Origin: Prochlorococcus sp. AG-432-D11
Lineage (GTDB): Bacteria > Cyanobacteriota > Cyanobacteriia > PCC-6307 > Cyanobiaceae
NCBI GenBank assembly: GCA_003212885.1
Contig: QCOP01000002.1
Span: 278 to 64,277, forward strand
Reading direction: 5' to 3'
Length of the DNA stretch: 64,000 bases
This document shows, piece by piece, positions 4,878-26,556 of the stretch. Position numbers and translations under genes: made by a program. The notes under the pieces were generated by a model. That model saw only the letters and a program-made list of their open reading frames with translations, searched no databases and was not told where the DNA came from. Every line of letters begins with the position of its first letter. The stretch's first letter is position 1.

Positions 4878-6164
4878 ATGAATTATTTAACTTTCAAAAA
4901 ATTCAGTCTAAGACTACGTTCAGTCAAGAACTTTTTGTTGATCATTTTACCAATTGCTTTGTTAATAGGTTATTTCTTCCCTTCCGCTTCATCGTCATTA
5001 AATACTATAGGTGTTTCTCTAATTAAACTGATTACCTTTCCAGCAATTCCATTAGTTCTTTCAGCAGTTGTTATTTCGATAACGTCTCTTTTTGATTTTA
5101 CTGGAGTTAATACATCTCATAATAAATTTGCAAAGAAGTTAATTCTTTCTTTGATTGGATTTATTTTCTTTTCCGCAGCGTTAGGACTTTTCCTTTCTTT
5201 ATTTATTAAACCTGGAATTCTTACTCCTGAAGGTAAACTGTCTATTGGTAAATATATGTTGGATACTACTGATATTCAAGTTAATATATTTAAATCTGAA
5301 ACAGAGAGTTTAGTTTCGAGCAATATTAACTTCTTTCAAACTCTTATACCTACAAACATTATTTCTGATGCAGCTAATAGCTCTACTTTGAGGATTATTA
5401 CAGGTTCAATATTGACTGGTCTTGGATTAGCTGCTGTTCCCTCAGAAAAAGCCAAGCCAATACTGTCCTTCTTGAAATCTGTAAATGCTTTGTCTGTAAA
5501 AGTTTTAGAAGAGCTTCTTGTTCTATCACCAGTAATGTTAATTTGTTTAATTGCAGGTGCATTTTCTTCAATTAGTACAGAGATAATAGTAGCCCTTTTG
5601 AACTTGGCACTTTGTGTTTTAGTTGGATCAATAGCTTTCCTTGGTATATCTAAAGTTATATTTAGAAAATTTACTTCTACTGAGGAGAGGAATATTCTAT
5701 CGTCCAATCCACTTGATGATGTGTATCTTTTAGCAATTTCAACGGGAAGCAGTATGGCGTGTTATCCAACTATTGTAAATACATTAAAGAATATTGGTAG
5801 AGATCCTAATGAGGTAGAGGCTTCTGCATCGATGAGTTTGTTATTAGCTAGATTAGGAAATATAATTTACAATGTAATTGTTATTATTTTTGCATTTAAT
5901 CTTTATGATGTTCGTATAACGCCTCTAATATTAATCCAAGCACTTCTAATGGGTATAGTTACAGGAATAGCAACAGCTGGTTTGACTGGTGTTGCTGTCC
6001 TTCCAAGTATTGGAGTAGCTTTGGCATTCTTTAGTCTGCCTATTCCGCCAATACTGCTCTTAATTGTTGCTATTGATCCAATAATTGATCTTCTTAGATC
6101 TTCTATTACTGGAGTATCTTCGATGGCACTAAGTACTGTAGTTTGTAGAAGAGGTGTCGTCTAA
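4878..6164 (+). CDS. Dicarboxylate/amino-acid:cation symporter (DAACS/GltP-like) family transporter, divergent
   Basis: It is a polytopic membrane protein. Segments STGSSMACYPTIVNTLKNIG and IDPIIDLLRSSITGVSSMALSTVV resemble the conserved SSaatLP and D..RT..Nv.G blocks of SDF-family carriers. Confidence 0.5.
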   Translation: MNYLTFKKFSLRLRSVKNFLLIILPIALLIGYFFPSASSSLNTIGVSLIKLITFPAIPLVLSAVVISITSLFDFTGVNTSHNKFAKKLILSLIGFIFFSAALGLFLSLFIKPGILTPEGKLSIGKYMLDTTDIQVNIFKSETESLVSSNINFFQTLIPTNIISDAANSSTLRIITGSILTGLGLAAVPSEKAKPILSFLKSVNALSVKVLEELLVLSPVMLICLIAGAFSSISTEIIVALLNLALCVLVGSIAFLGISKVIFRKFTSTEERNILSSNPLDDVYLLAISTGSSMACYPTIVNTLKNIGRDPNEVEASASMSLLLARLGNIIYNVIVIIFAFNLYDVRITPLILIQALLMGIVTGIATAGLTGVAVLPSIGVALAFFSLPIPPILLLIVAIDPIIDLLRSSITGVSSMALSTVVCRRGVV

Positions 6165-11490: not shown

Positions 11491-11541
11491 TAAATATTAC
11501 TTTTAAGTACTAATTAACAACTTTGATTACCTTGTTCTTAT

Positions 11542-11626
11542 GGAGAGGTGGCTGAGAGGTTTAAAGCGAACGATTCGAAATCGTTTGACAGGTAACTGTC
11601 CGTGGGTTCGAATCCCACCTTCTCCG
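11542..11626 (+). tRNA. tRNA-Ser (anticodon CGA), type II with long variable arm
   Basis: The acceptor stem pairs GGAGAGG with CTTCTCC (one G-U) and the discriminator is G. The anticodon stem AACGA/TCGTT carries loop TT-CGA-AA. The variable arm is TGACAGGTAACTGTCC and the T arm is GTGGG-TTCGAAT-CCCAC. Confidence 0.9.
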
Positions 11627-11729
11627 TAATTTCTTTTGTTCATGGATGCTAATACTCCCTGCACTGGAAAGGATTAGAGGGAAACATCTGTTCCTAGACG
11701 CTCAAGGATATTCATAGAGTTTCAGTCCT

Positions 11730-11821
11730 GTGTTGGCGGATGTGTTGGTGGATAATATAAATGTGTTGGCGGAAATATTAGGTGCTTTTATGAGTTGTTT
11801 TTTTAGATATGTGTTGGCGGA
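11730..11821 (+). repeat. Motif cluster A: four direct copies of GTGTTGGCGGA (one is GTGTTGGTGGA)
   Basis: The copies lie at 11730-11740, 11742-11752, 11763-11773 and 11811-11821, all on the + strand. The cluster sits 104 bp after the tRNA and upstream of the AlpA-like gene. Confidence 0.9.
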
Positions 11822-11911
11822 TGTTATTTCTTTCAAACCCTTATTACCACTGCTAGTTAACGCTTACTGGTACGTCCAAAGTGTCCCTATAGTAGATACG
11901 ACTTCATTGCT

Positions 11912-12094
11912 ATGAAACCTCATTTTTATACACGAAAAGATGTCCTTGCGATTACAAGATACTCACGTTCAACTATTGACCGTTTAGAGGCAAAAGGGCA
12001 GTTCCCTAAAAGGTTATCCCCTTCTGTAAATAGGATTTTTTGGATTGCATCTGAAGTTGATAAATGGTGTGAGGAGTTATCTAATGCTTACTGA
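11912..12094 (+). CDS. AlpA/excisionase-like (MerR-superfamily HTH) small DNA-binding protein
   Basis: ITRYSRSTIDRLEAKGQFPKRLSPSVNRIFWIASEVDKWCEE matches the phage AlpA/Xis pattern (..rsTiyrl...G.FP.p..l....v.W...ev..W). Confidence 0.65.
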   Translation: MKPHFYTRKDVLAITRYSRSTIDRLEAKGQFPKRLSPSVNRIFWIASEVDKWCEELSNAY

Positions 12095-12221
12095 TAAAGA
12101 AATACGCAAAATTAAAGTAACTAATCATCAGCAAAACTTTGGATATGGTTCTATTGCCAAGTCATTGGGCATGAAGAAATCTACAGTACAGATGATTGTT
12201 CAAAGGGAGGTAGCAGCATGA
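12084..12221 (+). CDS. 45-aa HTH protein (absent from the ORF track)
   Basis: The protein is MLTDKEIRKIKVTNHQQNFGYGSIAKSLGMKKSTVQMIVQREVAA, and GYGSIAKSLGMKKSTVQMIV looks like a helix-turn-helix. It overlaps the previous stop by 11 nt and shares ATGA with the next ORF. Confidence 0.45.
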   Translation: MLTDKEIRKIKVTNHQQNFGYGSIAKSLGMKKSTVQMIVQREVAA

Positions 12222-12421
12222 TTAGAACAAATAATTATGCAGGTGGATTATCTAATTACATTGTTTTGAAGGAAGAGAAGGAAGTTATTTTTTATTTGCA
12301 TAATCCCTATCCAGATTGCTTGGAAATCCCTGAGATAATGAAGCATAGGTTTCCTGATGATTACAAGAGCATAGTTGTAAGTTCCTTGGATGAGTTCAAG
12401 AAGTATGGGCAGAAAGTATGA
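12218..12421 (+). CDS. Hypothetical 67-aa protein
   Basis: The ORF is coupled by ATGA overlaps at both ends. A ggagg Shine-Dalgarno-like sequence lies upstream. Confidence 0.45.
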   Translation: MIRTNNYAGGLSNYIVLKEEKEVIFYLHNPYPDCLEIPEIMKHRFPDDYKSIVVSSLDEFKKYGQKV

Positions 12422-12594
12422 GTACTGATTGGAAAGACACCTCATGGCAAGAAGATTTCTTAGACATGAAGGCACATAAACCAGAAGACGTGAAATTGCT
12501 CATGGAAGGACCGAGAGGTTTTTTGGATGCAATGAAACTTGGTTCTCTTCATGAGGAATACAAACGATTGAAAAAGAGGCAAAGCAATGAATGA
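12418..12594 (+). CDS. Hypothetical 58-aa protein (absent from the ORF track)
   Basis: The protein is MSTDWKDTSWQEDFLDMKAHKPEDVKLLMEGPRGFLDAMKLGSLHEEYKRLKKRQSNE. It has an ATGA overlap upstream and an 8-nt overlap downstream. Confidence 0.4.
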   Translation: MSTDWKDTSWQEDFLDMKAHKPEDVKLLMEGPRGFLDAMKLGSLHEEYKRLKKRQSNE

Positions 12595-12850
12595 CATCAA
12601 TTGGAGAGAAGAATTATTGGACTCGGCAAAGTTCAATAAGAAGGAAGAAAACTTGTTGATGCATGGTGCAAAGTCATTGGCACAGAGTTGGCACTTAGGT
12701 GCTCTGTACACACGCTGGAAGAAGTTGAAAGGTTATAGAGAACCTCCGACTCCTAATTGCCAAAGTTCATTTCTTGAATGGGAGCATCGACTTGCCAAGT
12801 GTGACTTCTATATCCTTAATGAAGAGGACTTCTCTTATCCAGACTGGTAA
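12587..12850 (+). CDS. Hypothetical 87-aa protein
   Basis: The ORF is in the coupled chain. I recognised no family. Confidence 0.45.
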   Translation: MNDINWREELLDSAKFNKKEENLLMHGAKSLAQSWHLGALYTRWKKLKGYREPPTPNCQSSFLEWEHRLAKCDFYILNEEDFSYPDW

Positions 12851-12856
12851 AAAAGT

Positions 12857-13000
12857 ATGCAGTTAATTGAACAGCACAAAAAATTCATTGCTTGGTACCA
12901 AGAGAAACTTGGTTTGTCTGATTATGGATTGCTTTGGTTTGTTTTTTTTAAAGGCGTTGTTCTCACTCTGATCATTGAGCGATTACTCTTTCATCTCTGA
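12857..13000 (+). CDS. 47-aa single-TM protein (absent from the ORF track)
   Basis: The protein is MQLIEQHKKFIAWYQEKLGLSDYGLLWFVFFKGVVLTLIIERLLFHL. It is a paralog of the ORF at 13502..13663 (shared ..Y..KLGL....WL.F..G..L pattern). Confidence 0.4.
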   Translation: MQLIEQHKKFIAWYQEKLGLSDYGLLWFVFFKGVVLTLIIERLLFHL

Positions 13001-13007
13001 GGTTGTT

Positions 13008-13169
13008 ATGACTATTGATTGGAATGCTGCCAGAAAGCACTGCACTGAAAAGAACTGGAAGTGGACGCTGGATTTGATCGACAAATACCAAAAAGAAATG
13101 GAAGAACTAAAAGATGAGAATGTTAAACTCAAGCGACAATTGGTTCTTAGATCTCAAATGAACAAGTAA
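13008..13169 (+). CDS. 53-aa coiled-coil protein
   Basis: The ATG at 13008 is preceded by gagg. The protein is MTIDWNAARKHCTEKNWKWTLDLIDKYQKEMEELKDENVKLKRQLVLRSQMNK. A TAATG overlap links it to the next ORF. Confidence 0.4.
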   Translation: MTIDWNAARKHCTEKNWKWTLDLIDKYQKEMEELKDENVKLKRQLVLRSQMNK

Positions 13170-13501
13170 TGCCAGTTTTGATAATTGGTTGGAGCGTGTA
13201 CGACAAACTCTCAGAGGAAGAGCAAAAGGAGTTTGCATTAGTAGAGCGATATAGAACTGATTATTTTTATGAGTGCTATGAGTATGAAAATGCGAAGGGG
13301 AATAAAAATTATGAGTGGAGTGATCGATGCTTTACAAGTCAGGAAGAATTATTGGAATTCTTTGGTTATGAAATGATCGAAGACTTAAATGCAGATGCCG
13401 TATATGCAAGAAGGGTAGAGATGTTTACTGATGAGGAAGAAAAGAAGTGGATGAAATTAAGCGATGGTGGAAATCAAATCAAAGTAATGGGAGCGAAATA
13501 A
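13169..13501 (+). CDS. Hypothetical 110-aa acidic protein
   Basis: It is the largest ORF in the coupled chain. I recognised no family. Confidence 0.5.
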   Translation: MPVLIIGWSVYDKLSEEEQKEFALVERYRTDYFYECYEYENAKGNKNYEWSDRCFTSQEELLEFFGYEMIEDLNADAVYARRVEMFTDEEEKKWMKLSDGGNQIKVMGAK

Positions 13502-13663
13502 ATGCTTACCACTATCAGACAAATACACGACTCCACAATTGATTGCTATAGGAAATTGGGTCTGAATAATTCCACGATTGCTTGGTTGCTCTTTGTAGAA
13601 GGATTGTTTTTAGTTCTTGTAGGCAAAACAATCGTAGAATTGGTTGAAAAATTTTCCCTCTGA
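13502..13663 (+). CDS. 53-aa single-TM protein (absent from the ORF track)
   Basis: The protein is MLTTIRQIHDSTIDCYRKLGLNNSTIAWLLFVEGLFLVLVGKTIVELVEKFSL. Its ATG directly follows the previous stop. Confidence 0.4.
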   Translation: MLTTIRQIHDSTIDCYRKLGLNNSTIAWLLFVEGLFLVLVGKTIVELVEKFSL

Positions 13664-14183
13664 CAATAACTTTCTAATCAATTACTTTGATTAGATTTTG
13701 ATCTTCACCTTTCCACTCTTTGTAATCTTCATAGTCATAACCATCATTAGATAGTATGTCTTTTTCAATACTCACAATCCAATTATCTTTAAAACAATGT
13801 CTATCTTGTAATGGATAATTTGCATTTCTAAAAGCACAAACCTCATCAAATAATTGATTTTGTTCTTTTTCTTACTTTAATCATAATTAAGTGTTAGATG
13901 TTATTTAATTCCAGTCCTTTTTTGAGGGGATTTAATGACGGTCTTGGTCGTCACTATATGGACACTTTCGACGTATCAGTTTCTAATATTTTGCTGTTGA
14001 ATTGTTCCCTACACTATAGGTTTAGTTTGGATTTACCAGTTATTTATACTTACAGATCACTTGTTAAAAGTATACGTAATTTGCAGTTAATTTGTTATAT
14101 AAAAAAGTTAGGAACCAAAAGTCTACAAAGCATTCCTTTTGAGAGAAAACATCCCGCCAAAAATTTCCCCATAAGGTTTTTTT

Positions 14184-14219
14184 GTGTTGGTGGATAGAAT
14201 GTAGTTAGTTGTTGGCGGA
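14184..14219 (+). repeat. Motif cluster B: GTGTTGGTGGA and TTGTTGGCGGA
   Basis: The copies lie at 14184-14194 and 14209-14219. The cluster ends 5 bp before the ATG of the TPR cargo gene. Confidence 0.8.
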
Positions 14220-14224
14220 TCGAG

Positions 14225-14698
14225 ATGAAGAAACGAACTGCGATTATTGGAACACTGGTTTCATTGCTACCTATGGGACAACCGTTGGTGATAGGGACTG
14301 GAACGGTTTTGACTAGTGCTGCGGTGATGCTTACTGCCCCTGAAATAGCAAAGGCAGAGAGTGCTGAGTTCTATTTCCAAAGGGCATATAAGAAAGGCGA
14401 AGAAGGAGATTATTCGGGAGCAATAGTTGATTACAACAAGGCGATTGAGATCAATCCAAAGGATGCAGATGCGTATTACAACCGTGGAAATGCAAAAGAT
14501 GAATTAGGAGATTATTCGGGAGCAATAGTTGATTACAACAAGGCGATTGAGATCAATCCAAAGGATGCAGATGCGTATAAAAACCGTGGGAATTCAAAGG
14601 AACTGATAGAAGATATGAAAGGTGCTTGTTCTGATTGGAGAAAAGCATCTGAATTGGGAGATGAAGATGCTGCACAATGGGTAAAGAACGAATGCTGA
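14225..14698 (+). CDS. Secreted TPR-repeat protein (island cargo)
   Basis: It has a hydrophobic N-terminal leader. The 34-aa TPR units read DYSGAIVDYNKAIEINPKDADAYYNRGN, and the C-terminus is GACSDWRKASELGDEDAAQWVKNEC. A perfect 72-bp duplication lies at 14406-14477 = 14508-14579. Confidence 0.8.
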   Translation: MKKRTAIIGTLVSLLPMGQPLVIGTGTVLTSAAVMLTAPEIAKAESAEFYFQRAYKKGEEGDYSGAIVDYNKAIEINPKDADAYYNRGNAKDELGDYSGAIVDYNKAIEINPKDADAYKNRGNSKELIEDMKGACSDWRKASELGDEDAAQWVKNEC

Positions 14699-14751
14699 TA
14701 TTTTTTTAGAAGTTTGATTGCCTACAGTTTATTTTTTGAACGTAATAAGAA

Positions 14752-14774
14752 GTGTTGGCGGATGTGTTGGAGGA
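14752..14774 (+). repeat. Motif cluster C: GTGTTGGCGGA and GTGTTGGAGGA
   Basis: The copies lie at 14752-14762 and 14764-14774. The 27-bp block 14752-14778 matches 11730-11756 with 3 mismatches. Confidence 0.85.
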
Positions 14775-14807
14775 TTATTAGGTATTCTGAAATGTACCTG
14801 CGCACTC

Positions 14808-14855
14808 CTGTCCATACCTGTTCAGTAGTGTTCAATTAGGCGGACACCTTCTCCG
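14808..14855 (+). repeat. Decayed copy of the tRNA-Ser 3' half (attR-like boundary 1)
   Basis: ctgtcc...gttcaattaggcggacaccttctccg compares with tRNA ctgtccgtgggttcgaatcccaccttctccg. The terminal 11 nt are identical. Confidence 0.7.
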
Positions 14856-21369: not shown

Positions 21370-22254
21370 ATGAAAAAAATAAATGTATTCCTAGCTACCT
21401 TTATTGCTTTGATGCCACTAGGACGTCCCCTTTTTCTTATAACTGGAGCTTCTCTGACAGCTTCTGCTGTAGTGTTGACTTCACCTGACAAAGCTTATGC
21501 AGATAGAGATTTTTATTTCTTTTATAATCGTGCCGTTACTAAGTATAATTTAGAAGATTATTCTGGAGCAATTTCTGATTATAATAGAGCAATAAAGATT
21601 AATCCAAAGGATGCAGATGCTTATTACAATCGTGGCAGTGCTAAGTATAATTTAGAAGATTATTCAGGATCGATATCTGATTATAGTAAAGCAATTGAGA
21701 TTAACACAAAGTATGCAGATGCTTATTACAATCGTGGCCTTTCTCAATATAAGTTAGAGGATTATTTAGGATCGATATCTGATTTTAGTAAAGCAATTGA
21801 GATTAACACAAAGTATGCAGATGCTTATTATAATCGTGGCCTTGCAAAGAGTTTTTTAGAAGACTATGAGGGAGCTATATCTGATTATAGTAAAGCAATT
21901 GAGATTAATCCAAATGATGAAATGAGTTATATTAACCGTGGTATTTCGAAGGATAGCTTAGAAGATTATTCTGGAGCTATATCTGATTACAGTAAAGCAA
22001 TTGATATTAATCCGAATGATGATATAAGTTATTACAACAGAGGTATATCGAAGGATAACTTAGAAGACTATGAGGGAGCTATATCTGATTATAGTAAAGC
22101 AATTGAGATTAATCCAAATGATGGTGATTATTTCCTGAATAGAGGAATTGCGAGGGAGTTAGTTACTGATCTTAATGGTGCTTGTTCTGACTGGAGATCT
22201 GCTGAATCATTTGGGAATGCAGATGCGGCTATATGGGTAAGAAATCAATGCTGA
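21370..22254 (+). CDS. Secreted TPR-repeat protein (7 units), paralog of 14225..14698
   Basis: The leader is similar (MKKINVFLATFIALMPLGRPL..). The TPR units read DYSGAISDYSKAIEINPxDxxxYYNRG, and the tail matches (GACSDWRSAESFGNADAAIWVRNQC). Adjacent 102-bp units are nearly identical. Confidence 0.8.
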   Translation: MKKINVFLATFIALMPLGRPLFLITGASLTASAVVLTSPDKAYADRDFYFFYNRAVTKYNLEDYSGAISDYNRAIKINPKDADAYYNRGSAKYNLEDYSGSISDYSKAIEINTKYADAYYNRGLSQYKLEDYLGSISDFSKAIEINTKYADAYYNRGLAKSFLEDYEGAISDYSKAIEINPNDEMSYINRGISKDSLEDYSGAISDYSKAIDINPNDDISYYNRGISKDNLEDYEGAISDYSKAIEINPNDGDYFLNRGIARELVTDLNGACSDWRSAESFGNADAAIWVRNQC

Positions 22255-22845: not shown

Positions 22846-24141
22846 TTATTTGAACTTACTTTCTAAACTATCAAAGATAAGCTCGCCTACTTTTTGATAG
22901 CCTGAGTCAGAGAAATGACCATTTATATGATCCTTAGCACTAAAAGTGGAATCTATATCTTTATCTAGATCGTAAAAAGAAAATCCGTTTTCATTGGCTA
23001 TTTCTTTTAGAAGGTTTCTTTGTAATTCATTTGAATAGGAGTATTTCTTTTTATCAATATAGGGCTTGGAATTGAATCCACCAAAGCCCAAATATATAAG
23101 TGTAACGTCTGCTCCCCATTTTTCAGATTCAGTCCTAAGTTCTTTCATTACTTGCTTGGCAGCTATTTTCATTAAGTCAAGTTCTTTCTTAGGAAGAGTT
23201 CTCGTTAAAATTTCTTCTCTAGTAATTACTTTGTTTTTTTTATTAATAACTTGATAATTTAAAATTTGTGATTGTATAGTCCTAATAAGATTAATAGATC
23301 TTGGGAAATTTAGATTTGCAAAGGTTTTTAGCTTTTCTTTGTAAGTGGCCTTTTTTGAATTAATTGAGCTTAATGAGTTGCTTTCAGGCTGAATTAATTG
23401 AAAATATGACATTACATTTTCATCAGCTATTGCTTTGTTTTTTGCTAATACAAGTTGTTGATTAAAATCATATTTAATATAGTTTACTAAAGGAGATTGA
23501 ATTTCGTCTTGAAGATTCCTTAAATCGTTTCCAACCCAAAACCAAAATATATGTTTTGGTTTGTACTTTCTAGCATATTCTTTTAGGTAGGCAAGTTCTA
23601 GCAAGGGGCCAGCGCCTCCTTGTGCAAAAGAAACTATATTGTTTTGATTCTTACTTATTTTGGTGAGAATATTTCTTATAGTGTATTCATTTGTACAAGC
23701 ACCTTGTACGTATGAGTCTCCTATTAGAGCAATATCTATTGTTTTTGATTCGTATACATTGTCAGGGTTATTGAATCCATAGCGATCACTTATATAGTTT
23801 GAAAGATACCCTTGTTCGTTGCAGAAGTAAGTTTTTCGGTTTGAGATTCCATTTATTGGAAAGATTTTTTCATTTAAATTGGTTACATTTGTTCCATAGT
23901 CTGGGTAAAAAGATACGACATACTCGTCAAGAAAACGTTTGTCTTTGATTGCTTCATTGATTCTTTTAAAATCACTTTTTATAAAATGTCTATTTGATTT
24001 ATCGTGTTTCTTGCTAAAGAAATCATATGTAATAAATGTCAGGCATATTATTGAAATAAAAGATAACAAAAAGATTATATTATAATAAATAATTTTTGTT
24101 AGAGTATTTTCTTTATTTAGATTTCCTTTATTAGCTTGCAT
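22846..24141 (-). CDS. Membrane-anchored SGNH-like protein, last gene of the carbamoyltransferase operon
   Basis: The start at 24141 (MQANKGN..) overlaps the stop of the upstream 53-aa gene as TAATG. It has a TM segment. Block I is IALIGDSYVQG, block III is WFWVGNDLRNL, and HINGHFSDSGY lies near the C-terminus. Confidence 0.6.
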   Translation of the reverse strand: MQANKGNLNKENTLTKIIYYNIIFLLSFISIICLTFITYDFFSKKHDKSNRHFIKSDFKRINEAIKDKRFLDEYVVSFYPDYGTNVTNLNEKIFPINGISNRKTYFCNEQGYLSNYISDRYGFNNPDNVYESKTIDIALIGDSYVQGACTNEYTIRNILTKISKNQNNIVSFAQGGAGPLLELAYLKEYARKYKPKHIFWFWVGNDLRNLQDEIQSPLVNYIKYDFNQQLVLAKNKAIADENVMSYFQLIQPESNSLSSINSKKATYKEKLKTFANLNFPRSINLIRTIQSQILNYQVINKKNKVITREEILTRTLPKKELDLMKIAAKQVMKELRTESEKWGADVTLIYLGFGGFNSKPYIDKKKYSYSNELQRNLLKEIANENGFSFYDLDKDIDSTFSAKDHINGHFSDSGYQKVGELIFDSLESKFK

Positions 24142-24302
24142 TAAAAAATTGTATATATAAATGGGGCAATAACTGAACCTTGTGTAAATACAATTAAGGT
24201 TCCCATTAATACGATAGTTAAAATTAGAGGAGCTAACCAATACTTTTTGCGAACTTTTAGAAAGTCCCAAATGTCTTGAATTAAATCTAGAAAAGCATCC
24301 AT
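24141..24302 (-). CDS. DUF5989 (SxtK-like) 53-aa membrane protein, missing from the ORF track
   Basis: My own translation of the minus strand gives MDAFLDLIQDIWDFLKVRKKYWLAPLILTIVLMGTLIVFTQGSVIAPFIYTIF. This is the pattern of the small proteins that accompany carbamoyltransferase/SxtJ pairs. Confidence 0.65.
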   Translation of the reverse strand: MDAFLDLIQDIWDFLKVRKKYWLAPLILTIVLMGTLIVFTQGSVIAPFIYTIF

Positions 24303-24304
24303 AA

Positions 24305-24697
24305 CTAAAAAATCCTAGTTAAATCAGTGGGAGGAGTATCTTTGATTTCACGATAGGTCAATGTGTTCATTTTCTTTTTTCGTAGTGGATCATAACCACA
24401 TAATTTCATAATCAGAGCTATAGGTTGCAATACTAATAGAAAAACCAGTCCTAAGATTATTCTGCTATTAATAAAGCCAAGGATATGTCCTAGCCTCATC
24501 CATCCTATATAGGGGTAATAAAGAATTTTTGGAAAGGCAATGCTTGAGATTAGACAAGGCAGCCCTATAAATAAAGTCCAGCTTCTAAAGCTATGCCCAC
24601 TTATTAAAGGAAGAAGAAATCCTATTATTAGTGGGAAGCCAATTCCAATAATCAAGCCAAATTCACGAAGCTGTTTTTCAGAGTGTGCTTGTTTCAT
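24305..24697 (-). CDS. SxtJ-like membrane protein
   Basis: This 130-aa protein has 3-4 TM segments. It lies immediately downstream of the carbamoyltransferase (2-nt gap) and upstream of the DUF5989-like ORF. Confidence 0.55.
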   Translation of the reverse strand: MKQAHSEKQLREFGLIIGIGFPLIIGFLLPLISGHSFRSWTLFIGLPCLISSIAFPKILYYPYIGWMRLGHILGFINSRIILGLVFLLVLQPIALIMKLCGYDPLRKKKMNTLTYREIKDTPPTDLTRIF

Positions 24698-24699
24698 AA

Positions 24700-26556
24700 T
24701 TAATCCAATTCAAACTCCTGCTTCCAGGTTTCGTCTTTTTCTGATTCTGGTTGGGCAGATTTTAATAATATTTGATTTTGCAGCACAAGCACATCCATTT
24801 CAGTTCTCATAAAGCAACGATATGCATCTTGAGGAGTACAGACAATTGGCTCTCCTCTTACATTGAAGGATGTATTGACTATCGTTGGGCAACCAGTTAA
24901 TCGTTTAAATGCACTTATGAGGTTGAAATATCGAGGATTTGTTCTTTCATTAACTGTTTGAACTCTGGCTGAATAATCAACATGTGTAATGGCTGGAAGT
25001 GAAGATCTAGGGATATTTAATTTTTCAATGCCAAAAAGCTCTTCTTGTTCTTTAGTCATTTCTTTACATAGTCCTTTTTTAACAGGAGAAACTAAAAGCA
25101 TATATGGACTTTTACTAGTCATTTCAAATTGACTTGATACGTCCTCTTCCAAAACTGATGGAGCAAATGGGCGAAAACTTTCTCGATATTTTATTTTTAA
25201 ATTCATGATACTCTGCATTTTTTGATTTCTAGGATCTCCAATAATTGATCTAGCGCCTAAAGCTCTTGGTCCAAACTCCATGGGTCCGTTAAACCATCCA
25301 ACAACCTTTCCTTCATTAAGAATTTGAGCAAGTTTTTCAAATAAGTTTTTATCTTTAAGAGTTTCGTAAGGAGCATTAATTTTTTCTAGATAAGTAATAA
25401 TTTCTTCATTTGAGTAATTTGGTCCTAGATAGGTTCCTTTCATTGAATCATTAGGATTTACTTTTCTTTCTTGCCCTAAATTCTCATACCATCCTACAAG
25501 GGCTGCTCCTAAAGCAGATCCCGCATCCCCACTTGCCGGTTGAATCCATATCTCATCAAAAATCTTTTCTTGTAAAAGCTTTCCATTAGCAACACAATTT
25601 AAAGCTACTCCTCCTGCAAGGCAAATATTTGATATCCCTGTTTCTTTACGAAGAGATCTAGCTAATTTCAATACTATTTCTTCAGTTACTTCTTGTATTG
25701 ATGAAGCTAAATCCATATGAAATTGAGTTAATTCTTTTTCACTTTCTCTAGGTGGATTATTAAAAAGTTTATGAAATTTATGACTTGTCATTCTGAAACC
25801 ACGATGAAATTTAAAATAACTAATATCTAATTTAAAGGTACCATCATCTTTTATATCTATAAGATTTTTCTTTATTAATTCTGAGTACTTAGGTTGACCA
25901 TAAGGAGCTAATCCCATTAATTTATATTCACCAGAGTTAACTTTAAAACCACAATAGTAAGTAAATGCTGAGTAAAGTAAACCCAATGAATGAGGAAAAC
26001 TTATTTCCCAAAGAGGAGTTATTTTATTTTTTTTACCTATCCATGCTGAAGTTGTAGCCCATTCTCCAACTCCATCCATACAAAGTATGACTGATTTTTC
26101 AAAAGGGCTTGGGAAAAATGCTGCGGCGGCATGAGAAAGATGATGTTCTGAAAAAAGAAGCTCAGGGATTTGACTGCTGTTTTGAGGACAAAGATTTTTT
26201 TGTAAGATTTTAAATTGTTTTTTTAGTTCTGACTTTAGAAAAAGCTTTTCTTTCAACCATACTTGCATTGCAGCGATAAATGATCTTCCTCCTCTAGGAG
26301 CTGCTCCTATGTATGTTTCTAATAATCTTTCAAATGTAAGAAGAGGCTTCTCATAATAGACAATTGAAGAAACATGACCTAGATCTATATCTTGTGAAGT
26401 TAGGCAATATTTTATTGCGTGTTTTGGGAAGCTAGAATCGTGTTTTTTTCTAGAAAATCTCTCTTCTTGCGCTGCCGCTATAATTTCGCCATCACATAGT
26501 AGTGCTGCGGCACTGTCATGATAAAAGGATGATATGCCAAGAATATAATTGGACAC
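24700..26556 (-). CDS. Carbamoyltransferase (NodU/CmcH/SxtI family)
   Basis: ILGISSFYHDSAAALLCDGEIIAAAQEERFSRKKHD, GVALNCVANG and VNTSFNVRGEPIV are present. The two-domain architecture spans the full 618 aa. Confidence 0.85.
   Translation of the reverse strand: MSNYILGISSFYHDSAAALLCDGEIIAAAQEERFSRKKHDSSFPKHAIKYCLTSQDIDLGHVSSIVYYEKPLLTFERLLETYIGAAPRGGRSFIAAMQVWLKEKLFLKSELKKQFKILQKNLCPQNSSQIPELLFSEHHLSHAAAAFFPSPFEKSVILCMDGVGEWATTSAWIGKKNKITPLWEISFPHSLGLLYSAFTYYCGFKVNSGEYKLMGLAPYGQPKYSELIKKNLIDIKDDGTFKLDISYFKFHRGFRMTSHKFHKLFNNPPRESEKELTQFHMDLASSIQEVTEEIVLKLARSLRKETGISNICLAGGVALNCVANGKLLQEKIFDEIWIQPASGDAGSALGAALVGWYENLGQERKVNPNDSMKGTYLGPNYSNEEIITYLEKINAPYETLKDKNLFEKLAQILNEGKVVGWFNGPMEFGPRALGARSIIGDPRNQKMQSIMNLKIKYRESFRPFAPSVLEEDVSSQFEMTSKSPYMLLVSPVKKGLCKEMTKEQEELFGIEKLNIPRSSLPAITHVDYSARVQTVNERTNPRYFNLISAFKRLTGCPTIVNTSFNVRGEPIVCTPQDAYRCFMRTEMDVLVLQNQILLKSAQPESEKDETWKQEFELD

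Follow-up and report, generated by a model that had tools for sequence, protein, structure and literature searches.

Repeated 11-bp motifs in a Prochlorococcus genomic island are likely arm-type integrase sites of a tycheposon-like element that lacks its integrase

An island of the marine cyanobacterium Prochlorococcus sp. AG-432-D11 contains an 11-bp motif that recurs in three clusters (A, B, and C) around a small gene for an AlpA-like protein and a gene for a TPR-repeat protein, which raises the question of which protein reads these copies. The window analysed here is a stretch of 64,000 nucleotides (assembly GCA_003212885.1, contig QCOP01000002.1, positions 278 to 64,277 of the forward strand; all coordinates below are those of the window unless a related locus is named); it has a G+C content of approximately 32%, and its picocyanobacterial genes, among them psbC/psbD and one for a FutA/IdiA-like solute-binding protein, mark it as Prochlorococcus-like. 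A first-pass annotation of this DNA had proposed that the copies are protein-binding sites and had named recombinase or excisionase arm sites, replication iterons, and operators for the neighbouring AlpA or helix-turn-helix (HTH) proteins as candidates. We consider it likely that the copies are arm-type sites of a heterobivalent P4/lambda-like tyrosine integrase, and that they belong to a tycheposon-like element at the 3' end of tRNA-Ser(CGA). The mechanism is most likely a known one rather than a new one, with the window copy representing a well-preserved example without integrase.

A scan for GTGTTGGCGGA that allowed up to one mismatch identified eight plus-strand copies within 3 kb and recovered every copy listed previously; the GTGTTGGNGGA-type copies start at 11730, 11742, 11763, and 11811 (cluster A), 14184 and 14209 (cluster B), and 14752 and 14764 (cluster C). 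Only 0.15 copies are expected by chance, and none of 100 dinucleotide-preserving shuffles reached nine. In the first-pass annotation the motif had not been noticed elsewhere in the 64 kb by eye; the scan adds a single one-mismatch copy on the minus strand at 6044, inside open reading frame (ORF) 4878-6164, and no other match was found at that stringency. Three more minus-strand matches (29900, 37831, and 46001, the first of them inside psbC) appear with the relaxed pattern TGTTGGNGGA; these matches and the copy at 6044 are isolated and look like chance occurrences. The 27-bp blocks 11730-11756 and 14752-14778 (repeat D13) differ at two positions (93% identity) rather than at the three counted before. 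The sequence ATTAGGT, which had been described as following both blocks, does come after the third copy in cluster A and the second in cluster C, with its conservation limited to the closest relatives.

All three clusters lie inside a 3.2-kb segment between the 3' end of a tRNA-Ser gene and a partial repeat of that end. The tRNA-Ser(CGA) gene (11541-11627, plus strand, predicted by ARAGORN), which represents the putative integration target and the attB/attL side, also precedes the motif triplet in the related loci L008 and L029. The 11-mer at its 3' end, CACCTTCTCCG (11616-11626, plus strand, left core), has just two occurrences in the 64 kb, at 11616 and 14845, as compared to 0.15 expected; the second one (14845-14855, plus strand) aligns with the core of L001 and L014 and would represent the attR core and right element boundary. 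A tRNA 3' end paired with such a partial repeat is the signature expected of a site-specifically integrated element. Tycheposons and "cryptic" elements have been described as integrated at island tRNA genes, flanked by a partial tRNA repeat, and equipped with an inward integrase and an excisionase at one end as well as with cargo (Hackl et al., bioRxiv 10.1101/2020.12.28.424599). The window element shows both the island tRNA location and the flanking partial tRNA repeat; the integrase that points inward from one of the ends is found in L001-L008 and L025 and is reduced to a 23-aa remnant in the window. The remainder of the island in the window yielded no other doublet-plus-core scars.

The distances between the motif copies and the core are close to constant among relatives. 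Geometry was measured from the last core base at 14 loci with integrases that are 39-100% identical to the L001 integrase; these loci represent high-light (HL)-type and low-light (LL)-type Prochlorococcus-like contigs as well as other picocyanobacterial contigs, with either tRNA-Ser(CGA) or tRNA-Ser(GCT) as target. In the window, three sites on the plus strand (11730-11740, 11742-11752, and 11763-11773) start at +104, +116, and +137 from the core end, and the cluster C doublet (14752-14762 and 14764-14774, plus strand) starts at -103 and -91 from the attR core end. Wherever a relative's contig includes the P arm, the doublet starts at -104 to -100 and -92 to -88, and wherever it includes the P' arm, the triplet starts at +104 to +136, with spacings of 12 and 21-23 bp. 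In all, approximately 20 relatives with integrases in this identity range show the layout. Locus L001 shows the order of the joined arms, i.e., 100 bp of the flank that precedes cluster B in the window, the doublet, approximately 70 bp with four 10-bp repeats, the core, approximately 110 bp, the triplet and more copies, and then alpA-int; L014 likewise has doublet, core, triplet, and alpA-int in one contiguous stretch. This order identifies cluster C as the P arm and cluster A as the P' arm. Approximately six motif variants, which group into four families (F1, GTGTTGGNGGA; F2, GGTGT(T/G)GGA; F3, AGGGGATGAAAT, GGGGGAGAAAT, or AGGGGAGGAAAT; F4, TGTGCTGGTGA), share this one architecture, in which copies of a short motif stand outside the core on both sides at fixed distances, as would be expected for arm-type sites.

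Conservation of the motif exceeds that of its surroundings. In an alignment of five F1 attL/P' arms, the flanks of which are otherwise diverged and barely alignable, 26 of 33 motif columns are invariant as compared to 14 of 128 non-motif columns (Fisher p = 7e-14), and the motif is, as judged from this alignment, a phylogenetic footprint that has been selectively conserved among diverged relatives. The motif is kept in L008, L014, and L029. Together with the fixed geometry, the footprint supports the proposal that the copies are protein-binding sites, and we infer from both that they are actually bound.

The protein that would bind them is encoded in relatives of the window element. The 60-aa AlpA protein of the window is 100% identical on 7 marine metagenome contigs, and alpA overlaps a gene for a 421-aa tyrosine integrase there; an initial scan of genome contigs with AlpA confirmed no relative, and scans of IMG/VR viral contigs for the exact motif doublet and for the integrase were both empty. 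The integrase matches Arm-DNA-bind_3 (31.4 bits; cut-off 27), Phage_int_M, and Phage_integrase (PF00589, above cut-off), and 60 homologues share the catalytic residues R256, H353, R356, H380, and Y390 without exception (P0002 numbering). Integrases homologous to it number in the hundreds. While a sequence search of the PDB with the integrase found no match, a fold search did; the AlphaFold2 model of the 63%-identical relative P0002 (pLDDT 89) matches full-length lambda Int (1z1g, E = 9e-9), and its N-domain matches the arm-type binding domains of HPI, P4-like, and HAI7 integrases (3jtz, 3rmp, and 3ju0; TM 0.81-0.84), with a TM of 0.84 and an rmsd of 1.6 Å for 3jtz.

The window itself has lost this protein. 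Its nucleotide identity to the integrase-bearing contigs is 98% over 11808-12148 and then stops, and tblastn of the integrase against the 64-kb window found residues 1-23 and no integrase beyond this N-terminal remnant; the catalytic residues are hence present in the relatives only, as is the complete arm-binding domain. The remnant comprises the first ~22 codons of the integrase gene (MLTDKEIRKIKVTNHQQNFG; 12084-12148, plus strand). As the identity ends at 12148, ORF 12084-12221 (45 aa) represents a fusion and the integrase has been replaced; the chimeric product combines the N-terminus of the integrase arm-binding domain with an unrelated HTH-like tail, which has HTH_38/HTH_SB matches below the Pfam cut-offs. 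This exact fusion protein is not on record, has no meaningful match among phage proteins, and is absent from the relatives. Near-identity to the integrase-bearing copies shows that the loss of the integrase was recent.

Comparison of three related elements (L012, L013, and L015) favours the reading that the motif tracks the integrase N-domain rather than AlpA. Loci L012 and L015 have near-identical flanks and integrase identities of 94.6% outside the N-domain as compared to 74.7% within it; all five sites differ between the two loci, at the same two positions, and the L012 motif is the same as the L013 motif. The numbers of L012 residues that agree with L013 and L015 are 11 and 13, respectively, in the N-domain, versus 7 and 61, respectively, elsewhere (Fisher p = 4.7e-4). 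The motif differs from the core-type sequence and, in this single triad, changes along with the integrase N-domain, which is the behaviour expected of an arm-type site. Of the candidates named in the first-pass annotation, arm-type recombinase sites are thus the one that fits best, as the clusters stand at fixed distances from the core, the relatives' P4-like integrase has a predicted arm-binding domain, and the motif appears to switch with it. The annotation had also suggested looking for covariation with an adjacent DNA-binding gene; across L012, L013, and L015 such covariation is seen with the N-domain of the integrase and is not seen with AlpA.

AlpA is a competing candidate, as the 11-bp repeats could be AlpA binding sites that serve both as operators of the alpA operon and as sites of a recombination directionality factor (RDF). 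The alpA gene (11912-12094, plus strand) is intact, lies directly downstream of cluster A, and encodes a protein of the AlpA excisionase/regulator family with a profile score above the curated cut-off (PF05930, 38.4 bits versus 21) and with further matches to phrog_2790 (excisionase) and PDB 8c3t (AlpA family, E = 4.5e-6). AlpA and the motif always co-occur, and RDFs are known to bind tandem direct repeats in att arms, e.g., TorI in KplE1 (PMC2951348). We nevertheless regard this explanation as improbable. L013 and L015 have near-identical AlpA proteins and yet their motifs differ at two positions in all five sites, whereas the AlpA of L012 is more divergent and its motif is that of L013; furthermore, RDF sites would be phased tandem repeats on one arm that track the RDF, whereas the 11-bp motif is found on both arms, approximately 100 bp from the core, which is an arm-type pattern. 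The position expected for an RDF is occupied by a different array, namely four phased 10-bp repeats that are kept in all motif families. In the window these repeats (ACCTGCGCAC, TCCTGTCCAT, ACCTGTTCAG, and TAGTGTTCAA; 14796-14835, plus strand) lie between the P doublet and the core and fit the geometry predicted for RDF sites; in 10 P arms representing all motif families, the ..TC(A/T) pattern shows 10-bp phasing, with 29 of 37 occurrences on one phase and no match in 2000 shuffles. The four repeats are hence the better candidates for AlpA sites, or may represent extra core-type sites; some could be core-type integrase sites, as the last repeat resembles the tRNA T-loop.

The other two explanations are less probable still. 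Iterons of a replication origin used by the excised element would be consistent with the frequent presence of replication modules in tycheposons (bioRxiv 10.1101/2020.12.28.424599) and with direct repeats that are spaced at roughly one and two helical turns; however, the window element yielded no initiator, primase, or helicase, none is annotated in its full 8-kb relative L025, and instead of clustering at an origin beside an initiator gene the repeats are split around the att core, always straddling it at fixed distances, and change with the predicted arm-binding domain of the integrase, which makes an origin function very improbable. We assign the lowest likelihood of all to the possibility that the repeats are passive duplication scars without sequence-specific function or are operators of the HTH ORF 12084-12221. 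Cluster B and tandem units in L001-L003 do show that motif-bearing segments get duplicated, and the window does not have an integrase; the motif is kept, though, in L008, L014, and L029, where the flanks are hardly alignable and the integrases are only 52-63% identical to that of L001, and the geometry is constant across families with unrelated motif sequences. The HTH ORF, a window-specific fusion, is absent from all relatives, which keep the motif regardless. Both the scar and the operator version are largely refuted by the footprint.

If the copies are arm-type sites, the excised circle would contain a single attP of roughly 250-300 bp, made up of the cluster C doublet, the four phased 10-bp repeats, the core of 11 bp, and the cluster A triplet. 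The integrase N-domain would hold the arm sites while the C-terminal domains act on the core, so that Int bridges both to integrate the element at the tRNA 3' end, and integration would split the array into attL (tRNA, core, and cluster A) and attR (cluster C and core). AlpA, bound beside the core on the P arm, may bend this arm and thereby direct excision. In the window, a mosaic of small island genes has taken the place of the integrase gene beyond codon ~22, and cluster B may have been left behind when the TPR gene was inserted into, or recombined beside, the P-arm site array. Without an integrase in the window, the element would be movable only if a cognate integrase acts in trans; otherwise its sites would be recent relics. 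The window copy is best described as an integrase-less derivative that is similar to a cis-mobilizable element (CIME).

Several points weigh against an arm-type function of the motif copies. The covariation test consists of a single triad of related elements, and the relatives share ancestry, so that the locus counts are non-independent. The fourth cluster A site (11811) has no counterpart at that position in L008, L014, and L029, and cluster B does not conform to the canonical geometry, as it is located ~640 bp from the core with a spacing of 25 bp. Metagenomic contigs with a P-core-P' order could represent tandem junctions rather than circles; terminal overlaps were found on none of the metagenome contigs. 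Finally, the sites in the integrase-less window may be non-functional relics.

The region between the P' arm and alpA contains additional candidate regulatory sequences. A putative alpA promoter (TTACTG-18 nt-TATAGT; 11864-11893, plus strand) was read from the sequence and is plausible; a consensus promoter/terminator scan was uninformative and left the presumed alpA promoter uncalled. The fourth arm-type site (11811-11821, plus strand), +185 from the core and 43 bp upstream of the putative -35 element, may be an autoregulatory site that lets Int regulate the alpA operon; an analogous arrangement has been reported for KplE1 IntS, the promoter of which is overlapped by autoregulatory P' arm-type sites in attL (PMC2951348). 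The putative promoter includes a 28-nt segment (11866-11893) that has an inverted copy with 89% identity ~2 kb downstream (13953-13980; repeat I2); this copy faces a minus-strand ORF (~13680-13872) without family matches, which is frameshifted in an A-run (MIKVRKR… then …EQNQLFDEVCAFRNANYPLQDRH…). Segments 11820-11845 and 13897-13922 also resemble each other directly over 26 nt (D18); this similarity was dropped since it is AT-rich and may be due to chance. Within the alpA coding sequence of two relatives there is an inverted perfect motif copy, TCCGCCAACA (L008, 9937-9946, minus strand; L014, 1287-1296, minus strand), which spans S-A-N-R codons that are G+C-rich in an A+T-rich genome and hint at a selected extra site; the window alpA has no such copy. 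The alpA-int pair adjoins the P' arm (tRNA-proximal) in the GTGTTGGNGGA family (window, L001, L008, L014, and L029) and the P arm (tRNA-distal) in the other motif families (L013, L015, L012, L025, and L031); the recombination module has thus been inverted or relocated relative to attP in the course of the family's evolution.

Cluster B (14184-14194 and 14209-14219, plus strand) looks like a displaced or duplicated piece of the P arm that resulted from rearrangement. Copy 1 continues a conserved P-arm flank (14076-14183, plus strand; 92% identical to L001:108-228), and copy 2 abuts the start codon of the TPR gene; as proposed earlier, the gap between the end of the cluster (14219) and the ATG (14225) is 5 bp. 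The cluster B spacer GGATAGAATGTAG resembles TGGATTAGAATG, a conserved TPR-gene leader of other islands. The idea that cluster B copies P' sites 2-3 was considered and dropped; the T-variant site matches and the spacer similarity is weak. The TPR gene (14225-14698, plus strand; Pfam TPR_11/TPR_1) encodes a TPR-repeat protein with a hydrophobic N-terminus and represents cargo between P-arm site copies; its exact protein is not on record. The backbone-plus-cassette organisation envisaged in the first-pass annotation therefore holds in so far as duplicated P-arm sites enclose the TPR gene and the upstream flank of the P arm is retained at cluster B, while clusters B and C are not independent regulatory arrays. 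ORFs 11730-11915 and 13898-14197, which had been flagged as probable artefacts, are probably spurious, as they have no family matches and the att DNA beneath them is non-coding, with conservation confined to the binding sites.

L008 and L012 carry TPR genes as cargo too. The internal 102-bp repeats of the window TPR gene (14302-14652) are 63-72% identical to repeats (21552-22208) of a larger TPR gene (21370-22254) in the same island. In other Prochlorococcus islands (L032, 4400-8600; L033, 1-8600), tandem paralogous TPR genes each follow a conserved leader, consisting of a hairpin-like GTAGAAAG…TTTCTCTAC and then TGGATTAGAATG; scattered among these genes are different 11-bp doublets with core-like CACCTTCTCTG or CAACTTCTCT after them, which are possibly stacked att scars of other integrases. 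Units that combine an arm site with a ~90-nt leader are present in three tandem copies in L001-L003; in L001 (515-908), as well as in L002, L003, L005, and L007, such arm site plus ~90-nt leader/promoter units form two to three tandem copies, one of which has a truncated alpA start, and every unit junction is at the 5' edge of a motif copy. An assembly artefact is unlikely because the tandem units are present in independent assemblies. These patterns suggest that the site arrays are frequent recombination junctions. A broader reading would be that arm-site arrays are also preferred junctions for the gain, loss, and swap of modules, leading to an integron-like, cassette-by-cassette build-up of islands in which integrase-less derivatives could be mobilised in trans as satellites of intact elements; we regard this reading as rather doubtful.

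In place of the integrase, the window has a block of small ORFs (12218-13663, plus strand; phrog_16908, phrog_869, and cyanomyovirus homologues), i.e., a mosaic of island and cyanophage-like cargo genes, pieces of which are also present in Prochlorococcus islands elsewhere that lack both the motif and a tRNA. Two adjacent small ORFs at 12418-12850, of 58 and 87 aa, each have matches to phrog_869 and phrog_16908 as well as homologues that are ~45-53% identical in the T4-like cyanophages P-RSM6, P-TIM68, P-SSM2, and S-SSM5. The block had no DNA match in the phage collection, and a 110-aa ORF had neither an exact protein on record nor a meaningful phage protein match. In the distal island, a gene for an SxtJ-family protein stands beside a carbamoyltransferase gene (Carbam_trans_N/C; 24305-26556) and is adjoined on its far side by a gene for a GDSL-like protein (22846-24270); this region looks like a small modification gene cluster that is unrelated to the motif.

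In the attP of phage lambda, Int uses the arm-type sites P1, P2, and P'1-P'3, while Xis uses sites X1-X2. The system described here resembles this layout, as known generally, in that a heterobivalent integrase would use two arm sites on one side and three adjacent sites on the other, and in that phased short tandem repeats occupy the interval from the two-site arm to the core, on the arm bound for attR; the modelled integrase of a relative likewise matches full-length lambda Int. By contrast, the P doublet is adjacent here (12 bp), whereas the two lambda sites are separated by a host-factor site; all sites have the same orientation here, the element targets a tRNA 3' end over an identity of just 11-17 bp, and, unlike in lambda, no IHF sites were identified. 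P4-like integrases (DUF4102/Arm-DNA-bind_3; e.g., P4 Int/Vis, the Yersinia HPI integrase, and HAI7) are similar with regard to the fold of the N-domain (28-29% identity) and the Pfam domain above cut-off, an AlpA/Vis-type RDF partner, and a tRNA gene target; the differences are the low identity to the enterobacterial integrases, the unrelated arm-site sequences, and the picocyanobacterial host. As in KplE1 (CPS-53) with IntS/TorI, the tRNA, core, and P' sites are followed by an inward promoter of the recombination genes (window 11811-11893). Unlike in KplE1, alpA comes first and int overlaps its end, so that RDF and Int would be co-transcribed rather than uncoupled, and families F2-F4 have alpA-int beside the P arm.

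Degenerate remnants and stacked insertions have been described for tycheposons (bioRxiv 10.1101/2020.12.28.424599), and the integrase family described here may belong to the "cryptic" elements of that preprint, the text of which makes no mention of arm-type sites or of a repeated binding motif. The window copy differs from tycheposons in that it has no integrase and no detected replication gene. CIMEs and other integrase-less, att-flanked elements share with it an intact attL and attR and the lack of an integrase, and excision by a related integrase is conceivable; unlike CIMEs, the window element keeps an intact RDF gene, and no cognate integrase is present within the 64-kb window.

Elements that target tRNA genes, i.e., tycheposons, are regarded as the builders of Prochlorococcus islands; the preprint on them lacks a description of att-site anatomy. 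Our data provide an attP/attL/attR map (two plus three putative arm sites, phased RDF-like repeats, and core) across a picocyanobacterial integrase family, and a doublet approximately 100 bp before a partial tRNA may serve as a signature for element ends and remnants even where the integrase is missing. The L012/L013/L015 comparison would represent a natural case of integrase specificity switching, in which five sites and the N-domain change together. For the island of AG-432-D11, this layer would be a recently disabled element rather than an unknown regulatory system.

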